Shown: positions 1 through 49,432 of the stretch, piece after piece
How positions within the stretch are numbered: the stretch's first letter is position 1
How the letters are laid out: every line of letters begins with the position of its first letter
Origin: Marsupella aquatica
Lineage: Eukaryota; Plantae; Marchantiophyta
Length of the DNA stretch: 64,000 bases
Direction: 5' to 3'
Assembly: GCA_973895155.1 (NCBI GenBank)
Contig: OZ316895.1
Coordinates: 11,667,958 to 11,731,957 of the forward strand
Translations under genes and position numbers: made by a program
The notes under the pieces: model-generated
Seen by the model: the letters and a program-made list of their open reading frames with translations, nothing else
The model's database searches: none
What the model was told of the DNA's origin: nothing

Positions 1-783
1 AATACAACTCCATGAATACAGCCACATGATTTCCTTTGGTCTGCAAACTGGACAAAACTAAACTAAAATCAGCTTGGTCAATTTTAAATCCTTCGTAAGG
101 GTCTCTGACAGCAGCCCGGTATAGTCATTTGTGCACGAAGATAGAGTACGGTGCAGCTTTTGAAAAAGTGGGTGGACCAGCAGCTTGTTGAGAGTAAAGC
201 AACTTATGGTTCTGTAACAGATGTGTGCAGCAGCTTAAGATGTAGAAGGCACACAATAAAACTTGATTTTTACAGATTTAAAAAAGGGCAGGGTGAGTGA
301 GCACTGCATGTTGAACTCACAGGTCCGAATCTTGATTTGATTTCGCTGCTAAAATTCGTATCTCTTGCCTGAGTCCCAGTTTGCTGGAGTTTTGTTGCTC
401 TCTGTGCTTTGTTGTGCACATTGTTGTGTTTGCTCTGTCCATTTTAAAACTTGAGAGCCAAATGAATGCTTTGCTGAAACTCAATTGCTATTTTTTCTGT
501 GTTGCCCTTACAGATTTTAAAAAGGCAGGGTGAGTGAGCACTGCTGTACAGCAAGCAAAGGCATACAGGTTGCAATATTTGTGATTGCTTCCAATCATCT
601 AGGCCAAGGTTATTTGCGCTGCTCAGTCCTAAATGCTTTGCCATCTATAAAGCATTGGTTTATGTTGCACCCTTGTGGTTACATGTCATATTTTATGCTG
701 CACCCTCATTCTTTTGTGTCATACTGCACCCTGTTATTCCTTCTTGTTTCACAATCTGATGTAGGGTCTGAGTGTGCAGGACC

Positions 784-1443
784 ATGGCTCGCAATAAGCA
801 GAAGGCCATGAATCGTTGCAGAGGTGAATCCTCTCAAGCACCTCAATTGTCCTTATATTCAGACATTGAGATTAACCAGAATAGTCCACATGTATGTGCG
901 ATTTGTGATGAGGGAGGGGATCTCATTGTTTGTGATGGGCCTTGCCACCGACATTTCCATAAGAATGTTTCCTGTCCTTTGGGTCAGCAATGGCTATGCC
1001 CAACTATATCCCTCGCTGATGGCCATGTTGGAGAATGGCTTTGTGTTGATTGCAAGAATGAGGAACATTCTTGCTTTAAGTGCCATGTGTCTGGAAAAAT
1101 TGGTGAAGAGGTAAGAAAATGTCCAGACTCTCTCTGTGCCCGGTTTTACTGTCGGCAGTGTTTGGTTCCTGGCACAGCATCATGTGGACTCCATATTTGT
1201 CTTACTTGTGGACAGGGGCCCAATGATGGGGCTAATGGCTTTTTGGTTCAGTGCATGAGGTGTCCTAAGGCATGGCACAAAGACTGCCTGCTGTTTATCC
1301 AGCAGAGGGGATTTGCCCATGATCGAACAATTTGGGATCACTCAGCGCATGGGCAGCCCAAGAAGGGGATGTTTTACTGTCCTGACCATGACATTGACCC
1401 TACACTAGGCACTCCTGCTAGGAGCCACATATCTTGGATTTGA
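784..1443 (+). CDS. Stand-alone EDM2-type composite (atypical, ~2.5x) PHD zinc-finger protein, 219 aa, inside CACTA element 1
   Basis: accATGg start at 784. The motif series VCAICDEGGDLIVCDGPCHRHFH / WLCVDCKNEEHSCFKC / VRKCPDSLCARFYC / CGLHICLTC / CMRCPKAWHKDCL / RTIWD / FYCPDHDIDPTLGTPARSHISW parallels the PHD cluster of plant EDM2 (VCAICDNGG...CRRCPKSYHRKCL...TRAWD...IYCQEHEIDEELLTPVRDH, recalled from knowledge of the family). An AG acceptor at 778-779 allows upstream exons. Confidence 0.85.
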   Translation: MARNKQKAMNRCRGESSQAPQLSLYSDIEINQNSPHVCAICDEGGDLIVCDGPCHRHFHKNVSCPLGQQWLCPTISLADGHVGEWLCVDCKNEEHSCFKCHVSGKIGEEVRKCPDSLCARFYCRQCLVPGTASCGLHICLTCGQGPNDGANGFLVQCMRCPKAWHKDCLLFIQQRGFAHDRTIWDHSAHGQPKKGMFYCPDHDIDPTLGTPARSHISWI

Positions 1444-2040: not shown

Positions 2041-5000
2041 ATGGCACAATTGCCACAGAATACGTTAGGTGTGGGTAGAACTCCAAAGTTGCCGCTCTTC
2101 CATCCAGCTAGAGTACAACATCGTGATGATGCTTTGTGGGTTCGAGAACAGAAGGCCTGCCACAAGAGTGGGGACCATAAGATGTACTGCCCTTGTGTGA
2201 ACTGCAAAGGGAATTATAGGACTAATCGGAATACTGCTAGACTGCACCTTATTAAACATGGTCGGTACCCTGCATGTCGAGTGTGGGTGGGAGAGGGACA
2301 GGACTCTTCTGATGAAGAGTGGGGTGCTGACTACATGTCACAACATGGCCCTGAGGCATTGAGGGTAGCAAACCTTCAGCAGGCAACCTGTGCACAACAG
2401 CCAACTGTAGATGTTGAAGAACATTTATTTGTAGATGTTCCAGAGTATCCAACTGTGGATGTTCCAGAGTATCCAACTGTGGATGTTCAAGAACATCCAA
2501 CTATAGATGTCGAAGAACATATCAGGGCTCTACTGGAAGAAACGTTGCTGAGAACCAGTGAAGAATCCCCTGAGCATGAGCTAGATGATCAGGACCGTTT
2601 TGACTTGGATTTTGTACTTGGGGATGATGAGAGTGAAGGAGGTGCCCATCCTGTAAACCCCCTTGAAACCTCCAAAACTCCTGTGGAGACTGATCCTGCA
2701 CAGTTATCTTTAGATGCAGCAATGCAACCTTTGTTCCCAGGCAGCAAAATAGATGTTGTGTCATTCATGTTGCTTCTGCTGAACATCTGTCATGGCCATG
2801 GATTCTCAAACAAAGGAGTGAATGCATTGTTGTCTTTGATGGGGGAGCATGGTATGCCTACAGAGCATAATCTGCCCAAGAACTTATATGCTGCAAAGCA
2901 GCTATTGAGAAAGCTTGGCTTGGATTATGAGAGAATCCCTGTCTGTGAGAAAGGTTGTATGCTCTTTAGGGGTGAGAATGCCAAGTTAGAAAACTGTTCA
3001 GTGTGTCAGCAGCCCAAGATGAAGAGAGTGGGGAATTCATTACAGGCAAGGAAGGTAGTGCGGTATTTCCCTATAATTCCCAGGTTGAAGAGATTGTATG
3101 CCACTGCTGGTACATCTAAACTCATGACTTGGCATCATGAGAATAGAAGCACAGACAACATGGTTCGGCACGCAGCAGATTCAAAGGCTTGGAAGCATGT
3201 GGATACAAATATTGATCGGGAATTTGCAGCTGAACCAAGGAATGTGCGATTTGGGTTGGCACTTGATGGGGTGAATCCCTTTGGGAATAATTCCACAGCT
3301 TGGTCTACCTGGCCAATACTGTTGTTGAATTACAATTTACCTCCTTGGCTTACCACCAAGAAGTTCTTTGTCATGCTAGCTATGCTGATTCCAGGACCTG
3401 ATTCAGTAACAGAGGAACAGCTAGACATAATATTGGGCCCATTCTATGAGGAGTTGGAGCTGTTGTGGAAGAAAGGAGTGCCCTGCTTTGACAAATTGCC
3501 ACGCCCAGGATTGTCTCAACACTTCAACCTTAGGGCTGTGCTATTGTGGACAATCAATGATTACCCTGCATATGGTTTAATATCTGGACAACAACACTCT
3601 GGATACAAAGGATGTGTCATCTGTGGGCCAGAATGTGTGGCACGTGGTTCTAAGCACTTGCAGAAATTAGAGTACAGTGGCCACCGTCGATGGTTAGCAA
3701 CAAGGCATCTTTTTCGTAGACCAGATAGTGCACAATACTTTGATGGTGCAATTGAGAGTCGACCTGCACCGTGTAGAATGACAAGCTCTGATAGAAAGAA
3801 GTGGGGAGACGAGACAACAGAATATTTGAAGAAGGGAGGAACCAAGGTTGAGGATGAGAAATGCCCCATAAAGGTGCATGGAGTGAAGAGGGCTACTGGT
3901 CTGTACAAGTTGCCCTATTGGAATGTAAGACTCCATACTACTACAATGAATTTCTGCAATCTCTTCATATGACTTTGAAATATATTCTCTTCATATACTT
4001 CCTGTAGCCCAGATTTTGTAATTGTTGTATTCAATGCACTAATTTCTGAATTGTGTCCACTGCACAAACTACTGCCCAGTGATGCCAAAAGTTGTATTCA
4101 ATGCCCTAATTTCTGAATTGTGTGTCCACTGCAGAAACTACTCATTAACCATTGTCTAGATCCCATGCACTGTGAGAAGAATCTTGCACACAACATTGTG
4201 CACACTATCATTGGGACCAAGGACACTCCTTCTGTGAGAGAAGACATGAAGCTCTTACAGGTGCGCCAACACCTATGGCTTGTACCCAATCCAGCTCCCA
4301 AGCGTAAGGATGACAAATTGTTGATGCCCCCAGCCCCATATTGCCTGAGCAAGAAGGAAAGAACAAGGTTCTTGGAGGTTTTATTGACCTTGAAAGGGCC
4401 CACTGGTTTTTCAAGTTCTTTGGCAAAGTGTGTTACAAAATCCAAGAAACTCTCTGGGTTGAAATCACATGATTTCCACCAACTCATGCAACAGATTCTC
4501 CCTCTGGCAACAATGGGATTACTTGATGAAGGGGTTCGCTTGGCCATAGCTGGGGTGAGCAATATCTATCGCCAGATCTGTACGAAGGTGTGGGACCCTT
4601 CAATGTATGAGAATTTGATGATGGATGTTGCATTCACTCTCTGCATTTTGGAAATCCATTTTCCACCAAGCTTCTTTGATGTCATGACCCATTTAATGAT
4701 TCACCTAGTGGAGGAATTAGACTTGTGTGGCCCAGTTACAGGCAGATGGATGTACCCAATAGAGAGGAACCTGAAGGTATTGAAGGGTTATGTACGAAAC
4801 AAGGCACGTCCAGAGGCTTCTATGGCTGAAGGCTATGTATTAGATGAGTCTTTGGGATTTCTTTCTGAATACATGATTGATGCAAAGGGAGAGGGAAAAC
4901 GAACCTGGGAGTTGGAGGAGGATGCTGGCGTTGCAGGCATTGTTTTGGAAGGGGCTGCAAAGGCGATAACTTTGGATTGGTCTGAAATGATGGCCATGCA

Positions 5001-6034
5001 TCATTATATATTAGAGAATGAAGAGACAGTGGCTCCATGGTATAGGTACATAAACCCTAGAAACTCTCCTATCCTTAGGCATATGGATCATAATTATGTT
5101 TCCCCATTGTGTTTGTATATTCATGGTGGATCGTGCACTAATGTCTTCAGTGTTGTTGTTGCCATGCAGGATATATGATGCTACCAATGAGACTGTTACC
5201 AAACGAAGAGTGGATTTCCGGAAGGAGTGGATGAGGAAGCCTGCCAATCGAAGAAAACCAGTGGAATTTCCCGTAGACTGCCAAGAATTGCCACCTTTCA
5301 GGGAATGGTTTCAAACATTAGTCAATACCCATAATTTTGAGAAAGAGTCTGAGCGGTCATTACTATCTGCATACTCCACACCACCTAGTTTGAAGGCACG
5401 ACTGTATAGGGCATGTAGAGCCTATGGGCACCATTGGAGGACTATTCCATCCTTGGGGTGTTTGAGTGATTGTGATTCTGGTGCTTTCAGCACTTTTGAT
5501 TCTGGGATGGCTTCTACATTCACTGAGAAGCGAGTGGACAGGTCTGGTGCAACCATAGAAGAATCTGTACAGTATGTAGGGGCCTTGACAGATATCTTGG
5601 TACTGAATTATGGCAGCTTGAGGAAAGAGGTGATTCTTTTCAAAGGGAAATGGGCAGATCCATCATGGACTCCTAAATCCTCTGCCAGTATGAGGTATAC
5701 CAAGTCTGGTCTTTGGCAGGTGAATTTCCATAGAGAACTGGGTGTGTCCAAGAAAATGGATTACGTTTTCCCAAAGCAAGTGGAGCAGGTTTTCTTCCAC
5801 CCCAATGAGAAGGGGATAGCATGGAGAACAATCCTCCACAAAGAATCCAGGTCCACAAGGGTGTTAGGTGATTACACAGACGTTGATTTCCATGCTACAA
5901 TGGAAAACAATGTCAAATTACACATCGAATTGGCTAAGGCCTGTAGGTCCAGAGAAAATCCAGGACCAAGTACTGGTCCCAAACGAGGCAGAGATGCAGA
6001 GGGATCTGCAAGAAAGGGCAGGCCTAAGCAGTGA
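2041..6034 (+). CDS. TnpD/Tnp2-like CACTA transposase; predicted exons 2041-3924, 4135-5045, 5170-6034 (~1219 aa, no stops or frameshifts)
   Basis: N-terminal transposase-associated MYCPCVNCKG. The Transposase_21 core includes RYFPIIPRLKRLY, HAADSKAWKHVD, EPRNVRFGLALDGVNPF, YNLPPW and LRAVLLWTINDYPAYG. The GT..AG intron 3925-4134 joins YWN|KLLINHCLDPMHCEKN. DUF4218-like GLKSHDFH...RWMYPIER...ARPEASMAEGY and DUF4216-like YVFPKQVEQVFF follow. Confidence 0.93.
2401..2520 (+). repeat. In-frame 24-bp tandem repeat x5 (PTVDV(P/E/Q)E(Y/H)-type octapeptide) in TnpD
   Basis: Units such as ccaactgtggatgttccagagtat are read directly at a 24-bp period. Confidence 0.9.
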
Positions 6035-6132: not shown

Positions 6133-9100
6133 ATGCAGCCTGTGAAAGGAAGATTGCAAGGGTTGTCACATTCTGTGAATCCTTATGAGGAGGCCCGAAA
6201 TCGGAACATAGAGCATAATGTCAGAATTATGCGTGATCTAGGACTGGGGCCAGACTGCAAGCTGATGTGTGTGTTGATATGTCTATTGCAAATTTGATTC
6301 AGTAGATGGAGTTGTCAGGTTCATGTTCTGTTTTCATATTCCAGATTGGTCTCATACTAGTATGGATCCTGTACATAAGTACTAGTGTTATGGTGTTGTA
6401 GATTCATTTTGCATGTATGTTTGATCTGCATTGGTGTATGTTGATGATTGCTTTGTTCCTTAGAGGCCCAACCACACATGTACAACGAGAGAGAGGAAAG
6501 CCTGCTTTGGTGAAAGGTACTTCAACTGAAACATTGCCAAAGAGGAGGAGCTCTAGACTATCAGAAGTTACCAAGGTGAACATGGCAGAGTTTGGTGATG
6601 ATGGCTATGGTTCTCCTTCTGAGTATGACACTGAGGATTCTGACATTGGAGGGTCAGAACCAGAGAGTGCACAACAGGTAATGCTTGAACTTCATCATCC
6701 TAATAGGAAGGGATCCTTGTCCCTTTTTCAAATTATATGTTGATATGCTTACGTTGTCCATGATGTAGGTACAGAAACAAAATCGTGGTCCTAAGAAGAC
6801 TGGGCCTGGTGGAGGTGGGCTAGTGAGATGTTGGAAAGACCCAGACACTGGACTCTTATATGAAAGTGAGTGGATTGTACTGTTCTACTTTTCAGGTGTG
6901 TTTGGAAGTTGATATTCTACTTGGAAATGAAATTAATTGAAGTGCTTTGGTGTTGTGTGTTTGTTTAGTGGTTCCATCAGCATCTGAAGGCAGATCAGGT
7001 CAATCTGATGTACTACATTCCAGAGGATCTTCAGGTAATACACAATCTGCTCGTGTTGCATATGCAAGTACATTTGCTCAACTTTTCAATCATGTACATA
7101 TTTTTTGATTGAATGCATGTGTGTGCATTGCAGGAGGGGCCTCTGAGATGCGCAGGGAACGAAGGCATGCTAAGAAGCAGTTTGATAATACTGCCAAACA
7201 ACGAAGGGATTGCGGAGAGGTGCCCAAACACATTAAAGTGAGTATTGTACTTGTTTGTAGATTTAGACAAATCTGATCCTCTCTGTTGTTGTGTGTATAA
7301 AACCTGGACTCTGCATAAATTCCAGAGTTATGATCTGACATTGTCTATGAAATGCAGATTTATGACAATGATATTGATGATTCTGATGGCAACAAACAAT
7401 ACTGGCTGGAGGAACTTCGTGGCAACGTACTCAGAGTCTTTGATGTATCAAAGCCAAAATGGACTGATCATCCACAAGTTCATACAACCACAGTGTGGAA
7501 TAACATGGCAGCTGAGTGGGAGTATGTGGGTGGGGAATTTATTAACACCAAATTCCAGAGTCATTGTCGTGGCATATTGAAGAGAGAGCGCCATAAAATG
7601 CATGTTTATTGGAAGAAAGTTTGCAATGAGGATCCAACCAAACTTGGGCCATCTGGTGTTGATCCAAAGAAATGGGCAGCTTTGGTATCTCATTTTACCA
7701 GTCCAGCATTGATATCTTTGAGTAAACAGATGACTGATAAAAGAGCACGAGTGCAAGATACCTCTCACTTTGGAAGGGGAGGGCATGCTGCAGCAGCAAA
7801 GAGAATGGTAAATTGTCTATCATTTTCACTATCAATTCTGTCTTGTTTGTGAATCTTGATGAAAACAAACTCTGTGATTTCTCATTCATTGTGTGTTTGA
7901 ACAGAAGCAGAAGAGAGGATCAAGCCCAGGTATATCTGACCTGAAAGAAAACCATGGTAGTCAGGGTTCATTGCCAAAGGTGACAATGAGCCCATCATTG
8001 GCAAGTGCAGAAGGTCAGACTGGTAGTTTTGTGGGAGCAAAGGTGAGCCCATCATTGGCAAGTGGGGAGGGTAAAAGTGCTAGCTTACTGGGGCAAGGAA
8101 ACAGACATGGATCAGCTGTGAGTATTGTCATACCAATTTGATTTGTACATCATTCTCCATTTGACAGAGCCAGTGTTGTGTCGTTTGTAAGTTTGACAGT
8201 GAGACTGTTGTGTTGGTTTGTGGTTCATTTACAGACCCCACATTCAAAAGAAGAGATCACTGCCATTGGGGCTGTGAAATTGGATGTCGCTGAGTTGAAA
8301 GGCACTGTGAGGGAGTTGACAAACATGATGACTACGTGGATGGCACATCACCCCAGTAATGCACAAGTTCCAACAGTTGTGCCTAGTCACAGTAAGTTGA
8401 CTACAACTACCAAACAAGGTAGTAGAAAGCGATCTCTTACTTTTTCAGGCGATAATGAAGGTAAAATTCTCTATCATGTATACACTGTCCATTCAATGTA
8501 ATTATTGTGATGTGTATATGTCATTGCATGTTTATAATGTTCTTGCATGTTTTTAGTGTGATTATATGTTGCTGGTGTATACATGTTTGTTTATGCATTT
8601 CTTTTGTGTGTGTTTTATGACAGCATCTTTAGGGGAGCCTCCTGTGTCGCAGGGAAGACCAACTGACACAGCTAACAGTACTCTAAAGCAAACTGAATTG
8701 GAAGTGAACCTTTTGCCATCTAAGTTGCCCAAAGAAGCCATTTCAGATGTCTTTCAGTTGCCAGAGGATAAGTCGACTCAGTTGACACCAGATGTAACCC
8801 CAGAATCATCTGAGTTGCCAAAAGAAACTCCCATTCCAAGTGAACAGGATGACACTCCATCAACTAGAAAGGGAAAGAAGAAAAGGAAGAAAGGATCCTC
8901 AGCAAATGCATCACCTGCACAGAAGAAACCAATGCAGTCTCCTAACCCCGTTGCAAAGGTAAATGTGTGTTTGATTTGAGTGTTCTTCTATCTTTCAATT
9001 TCTGTTTATTGCATTTTTAACAAAATGTGTTGTTCACAGTTTGCAAGAGGAGATTTGGTGAAGATGAAGAGCGTTGTGGACAATTCCATGATAGTGGCAG

Positions 9101-9300
9101 AAGGTGAGGTGACAGGGCTGCCAGGAGAAGATAAGTTTCATTGTGCAGATTTTGAAAGCCCTTTCTTGCGAGTGCGTGTGATTGAAGTGTTTGTAGATGT
9201 GGCATTGCCATTTGCCAATTCAGGGGAGAACCAGTCTAAATTATCTGATGTGAAAGGGATGAATGCCCTATGGAACTCTAGATTGCTTAAGAAGCAATAG
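6133..9300 (+). CDS. TnpA-like (Ptta/Tnp1 En/Spm) multi-exon gene of CACTA element 1
   Basis: ATG at 6133 (MQPVKGR...NPYEEARNRNIEHNVRIMRDLGL) splices in frame to the exon at 6464. The exon ~7358-7807 has Transposase_24-like ERHKMHVYW...VDPKKWAALVSHFTSP...SKQMTDKR...HFGRGG. The last exon ~9040-9300 has Transposase_23-like IVAEGEV...FLRVRVIEV...ALPF...KLSDVKGMNALW. Internal exon boundaries are approximate. Confidence 0.8.
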
Positions 9301-9654
9301 AAATAGCACTCTATCAAGAAACAATAGACATGATAGAATGACAACTCTGTTTTTCTATAAACATGCAGAGTGATTGGTATGTCAGGTTGTAACAATTGAC
9401 AATCTAATATTATTGATGTCAATGTAATTTTGTTTCATAAATTTGCATTGAGTTCAATATTTACCGTGAGACTTATGAAGGTATCTTGTATGAATATCAA
9501 TTGGATTTGTGATATATATCGAATGTTTCTTTAAGTTTTCATTTAGCAACTCTATTGAATGGCTTTGTAATATATGATTTTTGATTGACATCAAGTTTTA
9601 TCTATCATGATCACTTAAATTTGAATTTCTCCAAATCATTGAATACTTCGTCTG

Positions 9655-10370
9655 AATGATTGGCTTGAATGACTAAATGACTAGCTAGAATGACTGATGT
9701 AATGGTCATTATTCACAACTATCTTTGTGACCAATATGACTCAACTCTGGTCATTAAAGACATAGACTAAATGATTCAAAGAATGACATATACAATGACC
9801 TTTCTCATGGTCATTATAAACAAGTCCACTATGACTCACTTTATGTCATTCAAGACATGTCATTAATGACTAATGTGTATCTTTACGTGTCTTCTCCCAA
9901 TTGAACCACGTGTCTCAATATGACTTGTTTATACTGTAGTCATTTTGGACACGTCCAAAATGACCCAAATATATTGCCAAATGGTGAATCCTCTTTGAAC
10001 CACGTGTCACTATTTGATTTGTTATATAATGTACGTCATTTTGGACTGTCCAAAATGACCAATGTTATTAGTTTTTTTATTGCCACGTGTCGTTGTGTGA
10101 TTGGGTACGGGGACCATCGACGGTCAACGGCAATTGACCGTCGATGGTGATTTGTGTCGTCATTTTGGACCGTTCAACATTTATGACCATATCATAAAAA
10201 CGGTCATTTAGGATAGTATGAAATGACCACATGTTTTTAGCGTCATTTGTCCAAAAGGACCGTGACCAAAATGTCCGTTGTGACGTGTCTGGAAAGACGA
10301 GAACAATTGCGTCATTGTTTTGTTAAAAAGACCTGATTAATAGTCATTGTTTTGGTCATAAAATACATTG
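9655..10370. repeat. CACTA-1 right subterminal repeat region (AATGAC/GTCATT motifs in both orientations, three perfect palindromes)
   Basis: Dense (a)atgac/gtcat(t) motifs. Palindromes at 9939-9964, 10035-10059 and 10113-10148. Confidence 0.85.
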
Positions 10371-10383
10371 TTTTCTACTAGTG

Positions 10384-13300
10384 TATGTTTGAAGAATTTT
10401 TCTTGAAGTGAAGCATTGAATGTTGCCGTCATCCATTCTGCTATATGTAGTTCTCAAGCATGAATGGCATTGTATTTTCCCAGGTGGCTTCAGAACCCCA
10501 GGTAGGGTGAATGAAGGGGTGGCCAATACAACGCCCAGTACTACCGAGAGCAGTGCACGAGGGGAGGTGACAAAGAAAGGGAACGTAAAGTTGAATGAGA
10601 GACAATGGGTGGATGCTGAGTGTCCTCGCAAGAACCGATGGCATGCTGATTTGAAAGCTGAAGTATTGCGTTGGTTAGATGTGAGTGTTATTAATTTTAA
10701 AAAACAGCATCCAAAAGATTGGAAGACTGTATGTGAAAATGTTGCTGCCAAATGGAATTATGTGGGCAGTGATGATGGCGTGGACATAGGTTGCCTAGAG
10801 AGTACAGCAGGTAAAATTATCAAGCAAGAGAGGTGGAGAATGCATAAGGCTTGGAAGGAAGGTGGGGAGAAGCCAGATATGCCTCCACCAGCCAGTTGTG
10901 ATGATAAAGTGTGGGCAAGGTTAGTAGCTTATTTTGTAACAGATGCTTCAAAAAAGAAGAGTTCACAGATGACCGAGGCCAGGTTGAGTGTTCAGAACCC
11001 TAATCTGACAGGAAGGACCGGCACTGCACCGACAGCTAAACGTTTGGTAAGAATGAATGGCCTAGCTATGTAATTTATGCTACACTATGTACTATTTTTT
11101 AGTGTAAACCCATACATGTAAACTTTGTTTTTTAGTGTACGTTCCCTAAATATTGATCGATAACTTGTGTTTGCCATGCATGTGCAGAAAGCCCAATTGG
11201 GGCAAAGCCCTTCAAAAGAAGAGTTGAGGGCTGAAATTGTGAACACCCGGGCTCAAGAGGGTGCATCTGAATCCTCCAAGCATGTAAGTTATATGAGTTC
11301 TGATTGGTAATTGAATGACCTGCATTGAATTTCAGGTGTACACTGTATATAACATTGATTGTGCATATATTGCCCAACATTTCATATGGAGTGATTGAAC
11401 CTATACCCCTGTGTCATGTAGGGAGGTGGATCTTCACTTACAGAGATAAGTGGTCGTTTGAAGGCTGTCGAAACATGTCTTCCAGAGATCAATGAACGTT
11501 TGAATTCATTGACTGACTTGTTCCATGTGAACTTCAAGACATTAATGGAAGCTGTTGTGTCGGTGAGAGATAAAATTGATTCCAATTCTGCAGGAGTTCC
11601 ACCATCACCGCTTGAGGTGGCAAAGTCGATGCACTCTTCTGGCATGCCAACGACATGTAGGCTTGAAGGTAAGGCCTTTACAACTGTGTGGGATATGATT
11701 ATTAAATGTATAGTTTGAATTGACATTGTTTGTTGAATGTGTTATTTTCAGTAACATATATTGTGGTTGTTGTGTCCATAGAGAATAAGACAGGTGCTAC
11801 AGAGAAGAAGTATGAGAACCTGGCAAATACTCGCTGTAATTTAGAGGCAACAAAGTTGCAGTCTGTACAAGCAACTTGTTTGACAGAGGGCAGTCAACCA
11901 TGTTTGGATGAGGATGACATTGGCAAGGGAGTGGATGATATCAATGTTGGGGCAAATGAGGATATCAACAAGTATGACAATGATACCATTGAGCCAGATT
12001 CATGCTATGTAGATCTTGACTCCATTGCAGAGATAAATGATTTGCAGAATGTATCATTCTCAATGACAGGTGTGCCTCTTGTTGAGATAAATCCAACCAA
12101 AGAGTTAGTTGGTATGACACTCCCAAGTGATGAACCTGCTACTGTGACAGTCCTAACAGAGGAACCTACTGAGCCTAGCTTCACTACTGTGAAGAGAGGA
12201 AGCATGCGCACACGAAGCAAGTCTGCTGGTGGGAGCAGAGCCACGTCAAAGGTTTCATACAAACCTCCAAGAACAGTGCTGGCAGAAAGATCTAAGGTGG
12301 AAGTGGGGAAAGCACCTAATGCTGAGGGACAAAGTGGCTTGTTAGCTGTTGATGAGAGTGGAACACGAGTAGGATTTGCCAGAGTGCAGGTTGGTTCCAC
12401 AACGTTCCATGGCAAGAGGATTCCCCCAGGTTATTCAGTAGTGTTAGTCACATTACTAGTGAAACCTAAAGCTGTCCTTCCCATTCCAAACACAAATGAT
12501 GATCCTCCTCAAAAGACACTTGGAGATGCTGCAGGTTCTTTGGTATTATGGCCAAGCAAGTTCATAGAGGATCCATAACAATGTCATGCCATTATTTGTT
12601 TGTAGTGTGAGTCATGTTATGTAGATTTTAGATGTCAAGAAGCAGTACAAGAATCATGTCCTCTTGGAGATTCATAGTATCATGCATGTGCTTTCAGTTA
12701 TCTCATCCTACAGTCATCAATTATGAGTTCCTGTTTTGTCTAAATTACATTGATCACATTGTAAACTATTCCATTGGAATTCAAATGATCTTCATTTTTT
12801 AGCAAGATTGTGATTGTGTTTAATTCTTATGAATGTTTTATGTAGGATCTGCTTATATGATGCTTTGTTTCATGTGGATGTCATTCATGCTATGTTCATT
12901 TCTTGTATTCAATGTGTTATATTTCTAAAGTTAGAACATCAGGTTTCTATGTATTGTAATGTCGAGTGCTCTCTCTCCTTATGAACTGTCCCTCTGTGTT
13001 CATTAGTCATGGTTATAACTTGCATGTGAACCTTATTAGTTATAAACATGAGTATATAGAGTCCCAAATGGTTCTGTTGTGTGACGCGGGCCAAGGTCTC
13101 CATTGGTCTCTCCTGTGACACTAAATAGTCACACGCTAGTCGTTGTTGAATGCGGGTAAGTCATGTATGTGACTTACGATGTGACTCGCTGAAGTCATAT
13201 TGCAGTCACGTCGAAACAAGGCTAGACTCCACAATAAAGTCACAGATCAGTCACAAATGGGTATCAAGCAAGTTGCAAAGCTCAGTATCAATAGTGACTT

Positions 13301-13433
13301 CCATTTTTTGGTCTCAACTTTTGCAACTCCAAGGGTCACAGCGTGGGTCAAGTCACGTTGAGTCACAATGAAGTCACATGAGCCAAAATGAGTCATATAT
13401 TGCGGTCTCAGTTCACCTCGGATTCTTCTAGTG
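10384..13433 (+). mobile_element. 3' portion of a second, different CACTA element (element 2), interrupted by element 1
   Basis: Right terminus GATTCTTCTAGTG (13421-13433) is the reverse complement of CACTAGAAGAATC. GTCAC/GTGAC subterminal repeats lie at ~13080-13400. It contains TnpA-like exons and ends exactly inside the Copia gag. Predicted TSD ATG (13434-13436). Confidence 0.85.
10484..12578 (+). CDS. TnpA-like gene of CACTA element 2, 3' exons only (~10484-11047, 11189-11283, 11422-11668, 11783-12578)
   Basis: ERWRMHKAWK...PPPASCDDKVWARLVAYF...SSQMTEAR...TGRTG is paralogous to the 7358-7807 exon. The C-terminus FHGKRIPPGYSVVLVTLLVKPKAVLPIP...TLGDAAGSLVLWP is Transposase_23-like. The 5' part is displaced by element 1. 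Confidence 0.78.
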
Positions 13434-13999
13434 ATGTCATCGGTCAACAAGGCACTCACCACATCATTGTAGGATATAGTTGTCTTATCACGGAATAGAA
13501 GAACTCGAGACAAAGATTGGTACGAAGGTGGTAGTGAGCTCAAGAGTTGTAAGGCTTTCTTTTCTTCGCTCAAATGCTCCCCCAAATTCTCTAGGTCAAC
13601 CACAAGATCATTGAACTGATCGATATGATCTTGAATCTTGACTCCATCAGCCATTTTGAATTGCATGAGCTTCAGACTTGCATACATTCGGTTTGACATC
13701 TCCTTCTTGTAGTACTTGTTGCGCAATGCTTGAAACAAGTCCGTCACCATTTGTGTTGCTTTTTCATCGAACTGCTTCTTTACATTGTTTTTCAGGTACA
13801 TGCCAACAATACTTACCGCTTGATCCTGGAGATCATGCCAATCATCATCTTCCATCTCCTTGGGTTGAGATCTTAGTACCTTGCCTAGGCCCATCGCCCT
13901 AAGTGCATCCCTCACGTTACGTTCCCACATTGTATAGTCCATCCGACCATCAAATTTTTCCACCTCAAACCTTTGACCTCCAATCCTAGTAGTCGCCAT
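13434..13999 (-). pseudogene. Copia gag (UBN2-type, Tnt1/Tork-like), truncated by the CACTA-2 insertion
   Basis: MATTRIGGQRFEVEKFDGRMDYTMW...LMQFKMADGVKIQDHIDQFNDLVVDLENLGEHLSEEKKALQLLSSLPPSY. Homology stops at LLTDDI, exactly where the CACTA TIR begins. Confidence 0.9.
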
Positions 14000-14918
14000 C
14001 GCTGGAATGCCAAATGTAGTGTGGAGTCGCCTTCTCACAAGAAATAAACGTCGAATGCTCAGATGTGGGGTGTGAAAATAAGGCCAAAAATGAAAGTTGG
14101 TGAATTTTGAAACTGATCACTCCTATGTGTAGCCCACAAGGTAACGCTCCGAATTCTGAAAATGGTTTGTCAAATGGACTCTCGAGTGCCGAGAATTTTT
14201 ACTCCGACCGGAGGGGGGTAAAAGATGAAATAATTACCCCTCGAGGGAATCTCTTATGCCAAAGATTCCACTAGTGTACTTTTTCAGAATTGAACGCACC
14301 AATACTTGCCTAGCTTCCCCAAGTACGTCTCTCCAAAAGTTGAAGTTGATCCGATTTTATTTGCCGCTCGGAATCTTTGACCTTCGGTAAAAATTTAAGC
14401 CTCTGGAAAAGAATCTTTTCGGGAAATTCCGTCCGCCCTTGTACAGCCCCTGTGGGGGACTTCACAGGGGGCACTTCCCCCTGCCCAAGCCCTGTCGAGC
14501 CCTAAAAGGCCTCCTCGAAGTTTTCGACCTCCTCGCGCGTCCGCGGAAGTCGCGACTACTCGCGGCAGAAAGTACCCTCGGTGGATTCACTCAAATTCCC
14601 GTCTTAGTTTTTGACGAAATCCAATTCTGATTTCAGATTCAGAAACTAGACTTCGAGGGCATCAAGATTGATATAAAGAACTCGCAAAACGGTGGAGTAA
14701 TGAGGGAGAAACAATTCGGTGAAAGTGAAATTGTTTCCGTTTCTGACCTCAGGCCTTCATTGCTTCACTGAAATGAGCCCCTAGTTGTGTGCTCCACACT
14801 TGTGAGAAGATTGAGTTCGATCTTCTTTCAATAGCTCCGCTTCGAAGAGGAAATCATCCGCTGTTCGCTTTGCTTGAAGCAAGTTCTATGGAGTTCCTAA
14901 TCGACTGAAAAAATCTGA

Positions 14919-32820: not shown

Positions 32821-35800
32821 CTAGCCTCCAACTTGGCTGGGTACAGCACCCCCTGCTGCATCAATTGGCAGTCGCTGCTTAGATAGCTGCTCACGCCTAT
32901 GTTCAATCTCACCGCCCCTCCCTGAGCCCGAATACCTACCGCCAAACCTTCCTCGTCTTGAATGGCCATGCTCTCGACCTCTGAACGGTGGTGGGCTGCC
33001 TGGCCGCTCCCCATTCCAAGGTGAGCTGTTGTGAGCAGTGTCTACTTTGAGACCTTGGGAAGCTTGTGGTTGAGGCCTCTGATGTTGAGAAACTGGTTGG
33101 TACTGAGGCTGCTTCTGAGAATCATTTGAGGGAGGTCCTTGCAGTTTATTCTGGGGATCAGATCTGGCCGAAGGCTGTTGAGAACTTGAAAGACTTGGGA
33201 GTTGGTCCTTGTCCACGGAGCCACCAGGAATAATTTGCGACTTATGAGATGTAGACCTTGTGGTGTTTTCATTTGAATGACCAAGATCTGTACTAGGATG
33301 AGAGCGCTCTGGAGGAGCAACCCCTGTCTGCTGCCAATGACCATCAGATGTTCCCCTTTGGTGCTGCTGGTGATGGACAGCATTTGGCACATCTCTATGA
33401 TGATCCTTTTCTGGCCCTGGTTGCCTGTACCTGGACTGCTGGTGGGTATGCGATGCAGGAGCTTGCTCTCTTTCGTGGGCAAGTGCCTGTTGTCTAATGC
33501 GCTGTCTGGGTGGCGACCTTGGCTGCTGATGTGCCCCAACACGATCTGTCTGACGTTGCTCTCTATCTGTATAAGGGTGCTTCTCATGGACGGATAGAGA
33601 AGCAGACCTTCCTTGGACAGCCCCAACTGCCAGTGAGCTTTGTTCTCGGGTGGTCGTTGCTCCTTCTGGAGCAATTGGTTGCACAGCAGGAGCAGACCTT
33701 GGTTGCTGATGTGGTCCAGAATGGGCCTGGGACTGATCTCTATCATGCCTAAAGCTTTGCGACCTGGATTGCTGATGCCCCTGTCCCCGCTCATGTGAGC
33801 CATGGTGGTCTCTGTCAAATTTTCCAGGTGCCCCATGGTGTCTATTATCCTGTGAGATATTGATCCGATGGGATCTGACATGCTCATGCGAGCTTTGAAC
33901 ATCACTCTCCAAAACTCTGTTCTTTTGACTAGATCCTGGCCGAGGTGGCTGATACGGAGTCACTCCCTCTTGGGGGGCTTTCGACTCCCTCTCGATGGCT
34001 GCCGGAGCTGGTGCTAGCAAACGGGAATGCGAGGAACTTCCTTGCTGGGAACCCTCCAAATTCTGCTGCTCTTTCTCTTCTGCAGAGGTCGAGGGATGGA
34101 CTCGACCTACCTCCCTAGTTTGATGAGAGCTTCCTGGACGGGATTGCTCAGACGTTGCATTCTGAGGTCTGCTGCGGTGATGGTTTTGTTGTGTGTGACT
34201 ATTGTGGCTTGGCTGTTGGGATTTTCCACCTGTCTCGACAGATTCGGAGTGCTGGACCTGATTGGTCTCCTTGTGTGCACTCGAACGTTCGCTTCCTGAT
34301 GTTCTTTGTCGCCAAGAAGCATGGGGACGGCTCTGCTTGCTGCTGGTCTCAGCCTGCCTCGCTTCACTTCCAAACTTGATCTCTGACAAGGAAGTTGAAT
34401 TTTGTGGCACTTCATTGGTTACAGGAACATTTGCAGATTCATTTCCTTGATTATGTGCGACCGATGGCGCCTGTTGGTGCTGTTGCATCTCTTCCTGCTG
34501 TTGTGCTTGCTGCTTCACCACAGGTTTGGGAGTATAGCGCTCCAACTCTGCCCTTCGAGCCCGACCTGTCTGCGGAGCAACAACACCTTCTTCCTTCTTC
34601 TCTGTTGCAGTATCAGAACTTGGAATGCAATCTGATCCGAAACCTCCTTTGGGACCTGCAGGATGGACACCTGAGGGTGACCTCACTGGTGCCCAAATCA
34701 TTCCCTCTCCTCCATGTGATTTGTCACCGACTCGCACATCTTGAGAAGTCCCCCTCTCCCTAGCAGGTACCCGTCTCTCTCTGGCAACTTGTGATTTCCG
34801 TTGGGGTCTCCTACTTAGCATTTCACCATTTGATCTTAGAGACCCTCCATCACTTCCAGCAATCTCAACAGAAGTAGGTTGATCACTTGCCGCAGACTCA
34901 GATTTGAGGTCCTGCGGGCCGAAGTCTTTTTGAGAGATCGCGGACGGTAGAGCCTTTGTAACATCATCACCTCCACTTACGGTCAGTGCCTTAGGTGTTA
35001 CCTTTGCAACTTCAGTCCCCGAGTCATTGGAGTCATTCCACCCTTGGTTTGAGTCCACAAAGGAAGTAGAATCAGTGGACACGGTCAAACCTTCCGGTTT
35101 CTGTTTATTTCTTCCACTATTTTTGGTTTTCTTCTTCCGAGCTGCAGCAACACCTTCACTACTAACCACATTACTACCCAAACTTAGAGTCACATCCTTG
35201 GGTTCCAAATCCAGCGGAGCACTGGTCCCCACAGGCCATCCCCCGACCTTATCGTTGCTCTCACTAACAGCTCCTTGTCCTTGGACAGGATGATCTGGTT
35301 CCACTGATGGCGGAGGCTGCCTGGCCGCCTGCTTCAGCTGTGACGCAGATTGCTTCCCTCTATGCCTTGCTTCTTGAGTTTTAGGAGGAACCTGTTGCTG
35401 CACTTGAGTACCTAGAGAACCACTTGTTTCAGGTGAGGGAACTGCTAGGTCTTGCTGCACAGGATTCGCGTGTCCAGTGGAAGGGGATAATAGTGAAGCT
35501 TGACTTGTAGTTGCTGGCTGAGATGTTGGAGATAAAAAGGATTGCTCTGTTTTCACCTGGCTAGGCAATGCGGTTGTTCTTGCTTTTGTTAGTTCACGTT
35601 GCTCACCGGGGCCCATTTTCGCTCGATGTTCTTCTCTGTTACGTCCATTGCTTTTTCGATCCCCGGCTCGTTCACGTTTTCCATGCTCATTTCTGCCACT
35701 GCGAACTCGCGGGGTACTAGCTCCCGTTCCACCACCGCTAGTCTCAAGAACCTGCACTTCCTCCGTTACCACCTCTGAGATGACAACTTCAATTTCCTCC

Positions 35801-38800
35801 GTCTGAATAATGACAGCAGTAGGCTCTTCAGTTGGTTCATCCGAAGGAGGTTCCTCGGGCTTGGACACAGAAGCCCCTAGAGACCGCCTGTTCAACTCCT
35901 CAAGTTTTGCCAAAGCTTTTGCTTTCTGTTCCTTAATTCTCTCATCCTCCTCTTTCCGCAACTGTATCGCTCTCTGTGCTGCAATTTCCTTCATTCTTGC
36001 ACGCTGCATGAGTTCAACGCCCTATTACTTTCGAGAAGCATGTGCAAGACAGGAAGTAGACATATTGAAGTCGAGTAACTTCAGACCCCATGGTACCAAA
36101 TCAAAAACTTGTGACAGAGATTCCATCCACAGAATATATTCAATTGAAATTCAGAGAGAAAAACAATGCTGACCTGGGCCTCATAATCATATGAGTCAAC
36201 ATTGGATAAATTTTCGGAGTCAATCCCTGCGTTTTCTGCAGAGCCTGCCGCCCCTCCCGGTGAAGGGACTCCACCACTTGACTGTTTAGGACTAGCTGTT
36301 GACGAAGGTCGTGAAACCTCGGTAGTTATGTCGGTAACAGGAACAACCTTGGGTCTCCACTCCTTCTCACCATCATGACTATTCAAAGACTTACTTTTGG
36401 GTCTGATATCGTCTTTCACCAGTGCCTCGGCTGCAATCGATGAGACAGATAACTCTGTAGATGAGGTTTCGGTAATATTTACAATGTCGCTGTGCGGACT
36501 TTCAGGACCTGGATCCCCAACACGCTTCAAAATGCGTACTTTCTCGTTACCTTTCTGACCATCTGATGCGGACGGAGAGGTCGGATCACTTGACTGCATG
36601 TGCTTTTCTTGCACGGGGGGAGAAGCAACCTCCTCTGAAAGAAGAGTTTCAGCAGTAGATGGCCTGGAACCTTGAGTGACACTAGGCGTGGTCGGTCTGC
36701 TTTTCGAACTACCACTGGCATGCAATCCAGGTCGCAGAGAAGCACTCACTGAAGGTACGACACTAGATGTGACTGGGTTAGTCTCCTTCTTACTCCCTAC
36801 AGCCCTTCCAGTGTGAGGCGAAGAGATAGGTTCTCTTCCAAAACTCCGATCTCTTGTTTGTGCTCTCCCCCAACGTTTTTCCGAGGACTCACTGCTTTCA
36901 GAGACATGAACCTTCTTTGCAAGCTGGTCCTTTGTCTCCAACGGACTGACGTCTTCTCCTCTAATCTTTGAGACTGAACCACCAGACTCTAACTCCTTTA
37001 GTTTGCGTGTTTGCACATGTTCGCCTTCACTGGTGCCACTTGACTTGGGAGCCTGCACCACAACAGCATCCTTAGCTTCTCCACCGTCAACTGCCTTGTC
37101 CGTAGGCAGTTCGGGAGAATCTTCAATCTTCAAGTGATCCACATGTTTCCTTTCACTCCCTGTTTGTATGGTGTCACTATGCAACCCTGGTTCAGATTGA
37201 GTCATTTTATTACCTGGACCTGGCGATGCAGATGAGACGTCCTCCTCAAATACTGGCTTTGAGAAGTCCATTGGTTCATCACTGCTGGCAGCCGCCCCCC
37301 AGTCACGGTGGCTTCCCTGATGACCTCCACGTGAAGATGGCCTTTGCAATTCACTTGTCAAATTACTACTCATAATATGTCCTGCTCTGCGACTTTCTCC
37401 AGGATCCTGAAACGAAGTCAGTCGTCCTCCATCCTTGTAAAGTCCACTCTCTTTGGTGTATGCCCCTCCATCCTTATAGCCCGGCCCATCTTTAAAATTG
37501 ACATTGTCTTTGTATTTCGGCCCTTCACGATAACCTTCACCATCATAGCCCATAGACTCGTTGCGCTCCCTACTGATGCCCAAGTTATTCGGCATGTGGC
37601 GAGGTCCTGGCCCAGGTCCTCCGTGCGGATAACGACCATAAGGTTCAACAGGTGGACCTTGTGGGTAGTTTCCATACATTCCAGGAGGACCATTCATTCC
37701 AAGCATCATCATCTCACGTTCATCCATATTACCATAGCCAGGTCCTGGTGGTCCGTAGTAGTTGTCATAAGGACCCGGACCTTGATACATCCCTGGTCCC
37801 ATAGGAGGCCCAGGTCTTGGAGGAGCACCACCTGGTCTACCAAAAGGGGCTGTGTTTCCATACATATCACCATGTCGACCATATCCACCAGGACCTGGAC
37901 CTGGGCCTGGACCTCCACTTCTAGAATAAGGCCCTTGCCCAGGTGCAGGATATCTCTGCTGATGCATAAATGCAGGATCAGGTTGAAACCTTCCAGGGCC
38001 GGGAGGCCCATATGGACCGACAGGTGGACCACCTCTGCGCCAGTTCTCATCTGATGGGCCACCACCTGGAGCTGCTCCATGACCAGCTTCTCTGCGCCAT
38101 GTATCAGCCACTTGTGGTTGACCCCCACCATACGGTTGAATTGGTGCAGGCCCTTCCTTGTGCCAACTAGCGTCTGTCATCCCTGGATGGCCTCCATATG
38201 GTCTTCCTTCCCGCCGCCACCCCTCGGGCATTCTTTCCTGACCTCCATAAGCTCCAGGAGACGTTGGCCGTGGTTCGTCTGAAGAAAGAACATAGCCTTA
38301 CCAGTGAACTTATGATTGAAATAAAAATCACTTCTGATTATTAACCCATAAACTAAAGTTTTGTCTCTTTCTTGCCACTCAACAGAGGTTCATGAGGTTG
38401 GTATGGGATTGAACAACCGAGTGGAAGTTGACATCACGTCCTTATCATATTCAAGGCACCTTCTAATGCAACTATTACACTAGTGAAGGATGTAGCTCCT
38501 TGACTTAGCAACTTTGAGTTGCCCAAAACTATTAACATTACTTCCAGCGGCTCGGTAGGGTATAAGTTAGGAAGAGACCACAAAGCTATCAAATTTAACA
38601 CAGAGGACGGGAAGCCTTTCATTAAAAGGATAGAATGTAGACTTGTATTAAAGATGGCGACACAGTCCAGTACAAATCTTACCATAAGGACCAGTTGGGC
38701 CAGATGGTGGCCTCTCCTCAGTAAGAGGCACCCTTTCACCCCCAGATGCTGGGCGATCACCCGAAACACTACCTGGTAGGCACAAACAAAATTCTTGATT

Positions 38801-48266: not shown

Positions 48267-49432
48267 GTCCTCACTTATTTTCTTTCAACCCATCACTCAC
48301 TAATAAGTATAGGGGTCTTTTCATTGGATTAAGTGGAAGACTCAAAAAACATATGAAAGAACATTAGGGAATTATAAGCAACTATAAGGGATGAGTATTT
48401 AAACCAAATCCCTAATGTTCTTTCATATGTTTTTTGAGTCTTCCACTTAATCCAATGAAAAGACCCCTATACTTATTAGTGAGACTCAAAAAACATATGA
48501 AAGAACTATAAGGGATTAGGGATTTGGTTTAAATAACATCGTCTAGTTGCTTATAATTCTCATATGAAAGAACATATGAAAGAACATTAGGGAGAATTAT
48601 AAGCAACTAGACGATGTTATTTAAACCAAATCTAGAAATATTTAGAATACTCCATAAAGTACGTATAGAAAATAGTATCAACAACTTTTTCTTAGTTTTT
48701 AGCATGTTTATTACTCAAAATTTTTGCATGTGATATCATAAGCCCCTTAGAGTGGGTCCCCAAAGCTAAGGGCCCTCAATCCAAGGGGTGTCCCATATCA
48801 CGCGCAAAGTTTTGGGGGAATAAACACCCTAAAACTTAGGTCAATTAAGTTGTTTTTAAGAATTTGTTGTTAGGATATATCTCTAGTATAACCTATATAC
48901 TTCCATAGTACTAGATAGACTTCAGTAAACTAGGATAACACTAGTTTGAGTTTGAGGTTCCCATGGACCATGGGAGGGGGTATACTCAAGGGGAACACAA
49001 ACTTGTGCTCACACTTGAAGGTTCACTCTAGAGTAGAGAGAGTGAGAGAGTGAGAGGAGGAGCTCTAGCACATTGGCTATGCCGGGTGTAACCCTTTTGC
49101 ATTACTAGATTTCTACGAGGCTTGTGGACATAAACCAAACGGGGTGAACCACGTACTTTTAGTGTCGGAGTATGGATGAATGTTCACACATGTTGATGCT
49201 GTCTCATACGGTCTAGATTTATTTCCCAACATTTTTACCCTTGACTTAAGGAAATATTCTTGGAATATTACCAAATTTGGTTTTTACAAACCCTATGATT
49301 CTGATAATTCTCAAAATTGGATTAAAATAACCCTAATGTTCTTCAACAAAAATTTAAATGTCTTTTACTAAACCCAATAAAACCCCCTATACTTATTCGC
49401 CTATGATGGGTTGGAAAAAAAGAAGTGAGGAC
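48267..49432. mobile_element. Foldback (long-TIR) non-autonomous DNA element with a rearranged left arm and a solo LTR in its right arm
   Basis: Outer arms gtcctcacttattttctttcaacccatca...aataagtatagggg and cccctatacttatt...tgatgggttggaaaaaaagaagtgaggac. Symmetry centre near 48765 (tgtttattactcaaaatttttgcatgtgatat vs atatcacgcgcaaagttttgggggaataaaca). Confidence 0.65.
48868..49231. mobile_element. Solo LTR, copy B (same family as 27834-28254)
   Basis: TGTTAG...CCAACA termini. Flanks tttgt/ttttt match 4/5, consistent with a 5-bp TSD. Confidence 0.7.

Follow-up and report, generated by a model that had tools for sequence, protein, structure and literature searches.

In a 64,000-nucleotide stretch of the genome of the liverwort Marsupella aquatica (assembly GCA_973895155.1, contig OZ316895.1, positions 11,667,958 to 11,731,957 of the forward strand; hereafter the window), the open reading frame (ORF) at positions 784-1443 of the positive strand encodes a stand-alone zinc module of three fingers that, judged by its sequence and predicted fold, is derived from the plant chromatin protein EDM2, without being classed as an EDM2 member. 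The gene very probably lies inside a CACTA DNA transposon, directly upstream of the transposase gene TnpD, and belongs to a family of short proteins with an altered first finger and, in most members, an N-terminus resembling the tail of histone H3.

The frame comprises 219 stop-free codons in a single exon with no intron, as a first-pass annotation of this DNA had stated, and among 2000 base shuffles of positions 1-2040 one yielded a stop-free frame of this length. Pfam searches match the product to PHD_NSD (E 5e-8) and PHDvar_NSD (E 2e-7), and PDB sequence searches match it to NSD3 (E 2e-10) and NSD2 (E 1e-7); no SET or PWWP domain of NSD-type methyltransferases was identified in it by Pfam. 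An annotated EDM2-like protein of Chenopodium quinoa aligns with it, tail included (29% over 224 columns, E 2e-20). The EDM2-type tail occurs in 93 of 109 other, land-plant-type EDM2-type matches, in 0 of 10 algal-clade matches and in 0 of 8 NSD-type matches; an NSD or ASHR3-type origin was rejected, as the ORF carries the tail motif that is absent in all eight NSD-type matches. Together, the Pfam matches, the quinoa alignment and the distribution of the tail bear out the original description of an EDM2-type finger cluster and tail.

The stop codon falls two residues beyond the tail, leaving no room in the ORF for the adenine-methyltransferase-like (ELP) domain that closes the EDM2/ELP domain list given in PMC7529245. 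When 25 host EDM2-type proteins were compared with the 64-kb window, no match below E 0.04 was found beyond the ORF; therefore no N-terminal (RFD-like) or methyltransferase-like part is present there, the RFD-like domain being found in host matches such as P0004 and P0018. The absence of both EDM2 domains had been recorded at first reading, and the further view of the gene as standing alone holds as well; an exon of a host EDM2 gene extending upstream was rejected as an explanation, given that no other EDM2 part lies in the window. An AlphaFold2 model of the protein, built on a 46-row alignment, has a predicted local distance difference test (pLDDT) score of 88 and a predicted template modelling score of 0.83, with residues 1-18 below a pLDDT of 50. 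Foldseek returned partial matches only for this model, to PZP and NSD tandem fingers, with TM scores of 0.2-0.3 over the query.

The ORF stop and the TnpD start at 2041 are separated by 597 bp, in agreement with the earlier estimate of about 600 bp. The right terminal inverted repeat (TIR) of the element, CACTAGTAGAAAA, was not found in 1-2040 with up to 3 mismatches allowed, confirming that no CACTA TIR intervenes between the two genes. The subterminal repeat motifs of the right end occur in 1-2400 at background level (0-5 per 600 bp, compared with 49 at the right end); because the motifs themselves derive from that end, the informative result is their absence from other regions. Read coverage was examined in four of the eight runs containing the sequence, none of them listed as RNA, which says nothing about expression, and both the ORF and the transposase are covered in all four, representing three organisms. 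In one of these, run X1, the contig over 681-1881 has a depth of 701 (4 other letters) and the TnpD/TnpA contigs have depths of 771, 800 and 750, whereas the bins of an outer CACTA, at 10420-12578, range from 2680 to 5004; on this difference the ORF was rejected as a part of the outer element. Minor X1 contigs at depths of 17-24 suggest some tens of element copies, a rough figure since depth is not copy number.

The depth parity with TnpD and TnpA and the lack of an intervening end make it very likely that the ORF is cargo of the element, as first proposed, a position that we infer because the left end of the element lies outside the window. Several points weigh against it. Neither a left TIR nor a left copy of the target-site duplication is present in the window, whose start falls inside the element, and none of the 32 contigs listed of more than 13,000 spans both the ORF and the TnpD start. 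The ratio of ORF-bin to TnpA-bin depth is spread over 0.6, 1.3, 1.5 and 2.5 in the four runs. For the family described below, the linkage to CACTA rests on this one element, because the DNA context is known for no other member.

Approximately 35 short relatives of the ORF protein were collected from Logan, JGI and ENA records, with no functional name among the 28 strong matches. The 25 aligned members have a median identity of 42%; 20 of the 21 cysteines are kept in 91-100% of them, compared with 39% on average for other positions, and 22 of the 25 stop within 11 residues of the tail histidine. The hidden Markov model and BLASTP searches identify the protein as EDM2-type, and in a tree the 13 family members included form a single clade of their own (support 100/99). 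Seven relatives run into unrelated residues (P0017, P0019, P0093, P0094, P0138 and the tails of P0008 and P0203), a pattern expected if the copies of a mobile gene decay. Both common differences listed within the ORF, at 1014 and 1281, are synonymous; these two, from 40 differences listed of 933, are too few for a rate. There is little doubt that the gene has been maintained by selection as a protein.

The donor of the gene was probably a liverwort-type EDM2 paralog. The top three host matches in BLASTP are all liverwort paralogs, with identity to the best host matches of only 30-36%, and four sequence characters, picked after viewing the alignment, are shared with them. The motif R[HQY]FH is present in 25/25 family members and 7/7 liverwort paralogs, with Ser at that place in 81 of 109 other proteins; a Trp character is found in 24 family members, 7 liverwort paralogs and 5 others; the CLP proline is missing in 24, 6 and 4, respectively; and W-x-H is present in 24, 6 and 7. 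A first tree left out 10 of 155 rows, five because they were short and five because a region was misplaced or repeated, and a more careful tree was built from 57 chosen rows, four of them trimmed to the aligned part. By the approximately unbiased (AU) test, a union of the family with seven liverwort-type paralogs, five of which are named Marchantia, Riccia or Calypogeia proteins, was not rejected (p-AU 0.33). Descent from seed-plant-type EDM2 was rejected, the union with ten such rows having a p-AU of 0.03.

Two results count against a liverwort-type donor: the 57-row tree places the family on a long branch outside all streptophyte EDM2 and not beside the liverwort paralogs, and a union with three moss-type short paralogs, one of them a named Physcomitrium protein, was likewise not rejected (p-AU 0.09). 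A long-branch effect may account for the deep placement, given that the tail motif is found in land-plant-type EDM2 and not in algal-clade or NSD-type proteins. Both liverworts and moss have host paralogs whose sequence stops shortly after the fingers, and loss of the C-terminal end may have preceded capture, because the four characters are common to liverwort paralogs that already end after the fingers. The idea that the element itself trimmed a canonical EDM2 reader is thus not upheld, in view of the short host paralogs, the four liverwort characters and the rejected seed-plant union. Paralogs ending after the fingers form separate liverwort and moss EDM2 groups (P0012, P0013, P0015, P0020, P0022 and P0037), and a search on six gene ids found no paper naming the short Marchantia EDM2 paralog genes. 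A further set of unnamed finger-only EDM2 forms of 270-386 amino acids (aa) groups with seed-plant-type EDM2 (P0092, P0095, P0118, P0130, P0025, P0039, P0069 and P0124); three of these start with Met-Ala-Arg-x-Lys, and the set possibly represents an independent arrival at the same design.

The first finger departs from the EDM2 pattern just ahead of its first cysteine. PHD fingers of the H3K4 type are reported to carry acidic residues ahead of the first cysteine that mark binding of unmodified H3K4 (PMC3241642). At least one acidic residue directly precedes the first cysteine in 106 of 107 other EDM2-type proteins scored, including 7/7 liverwort paralogs, whereas the six positions before this cysteine hold none in 24/24 scored family members, where an invariant Q32 and a near-invariant H36 take the place of the acidic patch; acidic residues persist 9-11 positions before C38 in the ORF protein. 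Because the patch is lost, the family need not read histones as EDM2 does, and the earlier suggestion that the protein reads the same marks loses its footing. Chromatin binding may be changed or lost altogether in the family, which would also weigh against a role in chromatin.

A second conserved feature, absent from the first-pass annotation, is an [ATS]-R-x-K motif near the N-terminus, found in 24 of the 30 family members with a usable N-terminus and in 6 of 119 host proteins within the 45 residues before the first finger; the rows are related, and the counts are therefore not independent. Six of 36 members were left out of the count, three lacking the N-terminus, one being too short and two missed by the pattern despite carrying the motif. 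The tail of histone H3 holds Ala1, Arg2, Thr3, Lys4, Gln5, Thr6, Arg8 and Lys9 (PMC3241642). Relative P0001 is identical to H3 over the first five residues, and the copy in the window has Asn at positions 3 and 9. Residue 7 of H3 is alanine. Across the 12 strict cases, in which the motif directly follows a Met, the positions that played no part in the selection match H3 as follows: Thr3 in 3, Gln5 in 4, Thr6 in none, Ala7 in 8 and Lys9 in 6. The resemblance to the H3 tail is real at the level of sequence, though it is short and basic.

Other observations tell against H3 mimicry by this arm. The motif directly follows Met in only 12 of the 30 members, being preceded by 2-8 residues in the others that carry it, and is missing in six; position 6 is Lys in 9 of the 12 strict cases, compared with Thr in H3; and it is possible that the arm serves in nuclear import or DNA binding instead. 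A PDB sequence search with the 24-residue N-terminal stretch, a query of low power, returned no match and no histone chain. For P0001, a predicted complex between its N-terminal 30 residues and its own fingers, run without an alignment and by a method unproven on peptides, scored 0.03 (mark 0.34) and speaks neither for nor against mimicry. A Met-[Ala/Thr]-Arg start is also found in 13 of 137 host matches, including named proteins of Marchantia, Riccia, Calypogeia, Selaginella and Micractinium; long EDM2-type proteins of liverworts, a lycophyte and algae that start with Met-Ala-Arg (P0012-P0016, P0021, P0030, P0065 and P0079) have 250-830 residues between this start and the fingers.

Taken as a whole, a role of the product as a chromatin decoy or counter-silencing factor is proposed tentatively, as plausible but short of probable. 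A CACTA ancestor would have taken up a liverwort-type EDM2-family paralog already without the methyltransferase-like end, and of this paralog the fingers and a basic Ala-Arg-x-Lys arm at the N-terminus would alone have been retained. Splicing would probably join 5′ exons of the element to the acceptor at 779, so that the gene is expressed alternatively to TnpD and TnpA. The fingers would occupy the chromatin or partner sites of host EDM2-family proteins without bringing the other domains of those proteins, breaking the reader-writer loop that renews dimethylated lysine 9 of histone H3 (H3K9me2), and the disordered arm would present the readers or modifying enzymes of the host with a substitute for the H3 tail. 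EDM2 fingers are reported to bind H3K9me2 (PMC7472560, PMC6208443; EDM2 background also in PMC7529245 and PMC9292364), the Arabidopsis EDM2 complex to draw SUVH6 into an H3K9me2-depositing loop (PMC9910501), and Arabidopsis EDM2 and ELP1 to help repress the DNA transposon Mu1 (PMC3632883). According to the same source, EDM2 promotes some transposon transcripts in Arabidopsis, such as COPIA4, and for this reason a decoy could also harm the element, a point against the proposal. Spm elements activated by TnpA are described as retaining H3K9 methylation (bioRxiv 10.64898/2026.08.24.746577).

Four other explanations were weighed against a decoy. The product could be a targeting subunit that docks TnpD or TnpA on nucleosomes of a chosen chromatin state, steering or stimulating insertion as the PHD finger of RAG2 and of RAG2-like transposon proteins does for its transposase; the Transib group links RAG-like transposons to CACTA (PMC12730594), and their PHD fingers are reported to bind methylated H3K4 (bioRxiv 10.1101/2023.08.20.553239). 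The apparent insertion of the element inside another CACTA and the resemblance of the predicted fold to H3-binding multi-finger modules in Foldseek would fit such a role, however a single insertion site is available and the ORF protein lacks any domain known to bind a transposase. Most CACTAs are generally known to transpose without such a protein, and targeting is considered unlikely. The recruiter that had been proposed alongside the decoy, in which the protein, reading H3K9me2 as EDM2 does, would attract ASI1/AIPP1 and so secure read-through of the long spliced transcript of the element, is now the weaker of the two ideas, the decoy still standing. The recruiter would draw on a finger module and tail of the EDM2 kind, on the promotion of read-through of intronic heterochromatin by EDM2 (PMC7472560, PMC10241880) and on a multi-intron transcript spanning more than 8 kb; it is made improbable by the acidic patch lost in 24/24 members, by family characters of the paralog type rather than of canonical EDM2, by the rejected union with seed-plant-type EDM2, by the absence of every other EDM2 domain and by the fact that EDM2 is already supplied by the host (the Marchantia form has 1628 aa).

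A maintained scaffold for protein or DNA binding, with the basic N-terminus serving as a nuclear-import signal or minor-groove arm, would account for a motif that is short, basic and often away from the free N-terminus, for the lack of a histone chain among PDB matches to the low-power 24-residue query, and for family-specific invariant residues (Q32 and H186) in place of the acidic patch; some plant PHD modules are moreover reported not to bind H3 (PMC9640981). This non-histone role is rated as decidedly unlikely: the H3 register reaches past the searched positions (Ala7 in 8/12, Lys9 in 6/12, the first five residues of P0001), and distant EDM2 proteins of algae, liverworts and a lycophyte have the same Met-Ala-Arg start, suggesting that these first residues serve a conserved function. 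Lastly, the ORF might not be cargo of this CACTA at all: it could be a repeated gene next to the element, belong to another element, or be a captured fragment evolving neutrally. The position of the left TIR outside the window, a depth over 1-440 below that of the ORF in all four runs and the existence of short finger-only host genes (Marchantia Mp4g03050, 280 aa) leave some room for this; set against them are an ORF depth in run X1 close to that of TnpD and TnpA and unlike that of the outer element, the absence of element ends and subterminal repeats between ORF and TnpD, and an identity of 30-36% to the best host matches with zinc ligands kept, which is unlike a neutral fragment, and it is regarded as very unlikely.

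The features of the ORF and of the element are listed in Table 1. Spliced from three exons with GT-AG ends, TnpD encodes a stop-free protein of 1219 aa with Pfam matches to Transposase_21 (E 4.5e-66), DUF4218 (E 8.7e-36), DUF4216 (E 3.6e-5) and Transpos_assoc (E 6e-5). The ORF at 7334-7852 has no Pfam match of its own and shares 36% identity with a Ptta-type ORF at 10420 (PF03004, E 1.5e-4). With up to two mismatches, CACTAGTAGAAAA has 4 matches compared with 2.3 expected; therefore weight is placed on the exact match that closes the repeat zone. The TnpA-like gene beyond the right end shares 36-38% identity with the TnpA-like ORF of the first element, and its region has 3.7 to 7 times the depth of the ORF bin in run X1. 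One X1 contig runs left from the TAT into different sequence that supplies a GT donor, as would be seen at an empty site. Because of this contig and the different TnpA-like gene, the element appears to sit in an intron of the second CACTA's TnpA-like gene; the intron first described would thus be that of another transposon's gene and not of a host gene. This second gene (10384-12578) appears broken by the first element just behind the splice donor, and no end of the second CACTA was found using the motif of the first element. TnpA-like ORFs at 7334-7852 and 10420-11073 are present in this liverwort, and two 2026 papers restrict TnpA-like proteins to flowering plants. Metagenome scans with a 4-protein alignment and a 30-base right-end pattern returned no locus, and conservation in the wider family alignment was nowhere high enough for a scan of this kind.

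Table 1. Features of the cargo gene, its upstream region, the CACTA element and the apparent insertion site.
Feature	Position	Strand	Basis
Candidate 17-nt upstream micro-exon with preceding AG, then GTGAGT	276..292	+	sequence only; near-duplicate of 514-529
Candidate 16-nt upstream micro-exon; pyrimidine share before AG 0.69	514..529	+	sequence only
Pyrimidine-rich tract with candidate splice acceptors (AG ends 765, 779) directly 5′ of ATG	700..779	+	inferred
EDM2-type zinc-finger ORF, 219 aa, no intron	784..1443	+	ORF call, Pfam, PDB, alignment, model
N-terminal Met-Ala-Arg-x-Lys motif, H3-tail-like, predicted disordered	784..813	+	family count; residues 1-18 pLDDT <50
Finger 1 (C38-C90), canonical PHD-like; six positions before C38 without acidic residue	895..1053	+	
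Finger 2 (C97-H137), PHD_NSD type	1072..1194	+	
Finger 3 (PHDvar_NSD type) with the EDM2-type tail; stop two residues further on	1198..1440	+	
TnpD transposase, exons 2041-3924, 4135-5045, 5170-6034	2041..6034	+	Pfam; splice test
Probable TnpA-like exons, same element as TnpD	7334..9300	+	similarity to 10420 ORF; later exons inferred
Subterminal short-repeat zone	9601..10370	.	repeat counts; direct repeat 9901-9965/9995-10060
Right terminal inverted repeat CACTAGTAGAAAA	10371..10383	-	exact match, only exact one
TAT, candidate 3-bp target-site duplication	10384..10386	+	adjoins CACTAGTAGAAAA; right copy only
TnpA-like exons of second CACTA, apparent host of insertion	10420..12578	+	PF03004; read depth

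Upstream of the ORF, a near-identical 38-bp pair (270-307 and 508-544) contains in each copy a micro-exon candidate of 16-17 nt bounded by AG and GT. Joining the candidate at 514-529 to the acceptor at 779 keeps the ORF frame open, and splicing of this kind may add a few N-terminal residues to the protein. Elsewhere in the window, a Copia-type gag fragment at 13250-14003 on the negative strand (Retrotran_gag_2, E 1.6e-23) ends early beside the outer CACTA, long low-complexity host-like ORFs with no Pfam match occupy 32824-39996 on the negative strand, an imperfect palindrome of about 370 bp at 48267-48632 is possibly a small foldback element, and a host-like importin-beta family exon lies at 55588-56031 on the positive strand (IBN_N, E 2e-8).

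No PHD/EDM2-type or histone-mimic cargo of CACTA/EnSpm elements was found in the literature searched, which covered few subscription papers and no Repbase reports or supplements, and within this scope the cargo is undescribed in CACTAs, as first stated; neither PHD nor EDM2 appears in the main text of a 2026 capture review, a 2026 Arabidopsis atlas or the Spm preprint. Already known are transposon-borne chromatin genes (VANC, fungal TET/JBP and RAG2-like PHD) and short finger-only plant EDM2 forms. In its complete form, the proposal that an old non-seed-plant CACTA lineage carries a dedicated counter-silencing gene joining EDM2-derived fingers to an H3 tail mimic is rather doubtful. If true, histone mimicry, hitherto described for viral proteins, would extend to a protein encoded by a transposon, and the Met-Ala-Arg start shared by EDM2 proteins of algae, liverworts and a lycophyte would indicate that the host family has an H3-like control motif not recognised before. 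VANC and TnpA counter silencing by binding the DNA of their own elements and lowering DNA methylation; a captured reader module maintained over a long divergence would add a second route, acting on histones, in plant groups whose transposon control has received little study. With its small size, lack of introns and confidently predicted fold, the gene is directly accessible to peptide assays and to experiments in Marchantia, and it draws attention to the unstudied short liverwort EDM2 paralogs and the conserved N-terminal motif of non-seed-plant EDM2.

Among known systems, Arabidopsis EDM2/ELP1 and the ASI1-AIPP1-EDM2 complex share the finger module and C-terminal tail with the ORF protein, which differs from Arabidopsis EDM2 in its length (219 aa compared with about 800-1600 in canonical forms), its lack of RFD-like and methyltransferase-like domains, its lost acidic patch, its separate long-branched clade and the location of its gene beside a transposase. 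The liverwort EDM2 paralogs (Marchantia Mp1g03210 and Mp4g03050, and those of Riccia and Calypogeia) are its best host matches at 33-35%, end 4-47 residues past the tail in 6 of 7 cases (the seventh was not scored) and share R[HQY]FH, the Trp, the loss of the CLP proline and W-x-H; in contrast, most have 400-530 residues before the fingers, all are acidic before Cys1, and the annotation lists them as host genes. The VANC gene of VANDAL elements and the TnpA gene of Spm are likewise accessory genes of plant DNA transposons; for VANC, capture from MAIN, a host regulator, has been proposed, and for TnpA an NDX-derived domain (PMC13547354). Both bind DNA motifs of their own element and lower DNA methylation, whereas the ORF protein is a zinc-finger derivative of a histone reader without a known DNA-binding domain and is additional to a TnpA-like gene. 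Pack-CACTA fragments also represent host-derived sequence within CACTA (PMC13317346), however in the present element the transposase is intact, and the cargo is intact, old and diverged with its ligands kept rather than a recent fragment.

Beyond plants, the TET/JBP genes of fungal EnSpm and other DNA transposons are chromatin-related extra genes in CACTA-group elements (PMC12730594) that encode an enzyme acting on DNA methylation in fungi, as opposed to a reader module in a plant. Viral histone mimics such as influenza NS1 and SARS-CoV-2 ORF8 place a short H3-like motif on a parasite protein (PMC11738798); here the protein belongs to a transposon, the motif is joined to a reader fold, and the likeness is one of sequence resemblance only. 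In the broader Transib/CACTA group, RAG2-like genes are likewise second genes of a transposon whose products have PHD fingers (bioRxiv 10.1101/2023.08.20.553239), but are described as animal genes that combine Kelch and PHD domains, with an aromatic methyl-lysine pocket in a finger of another type.
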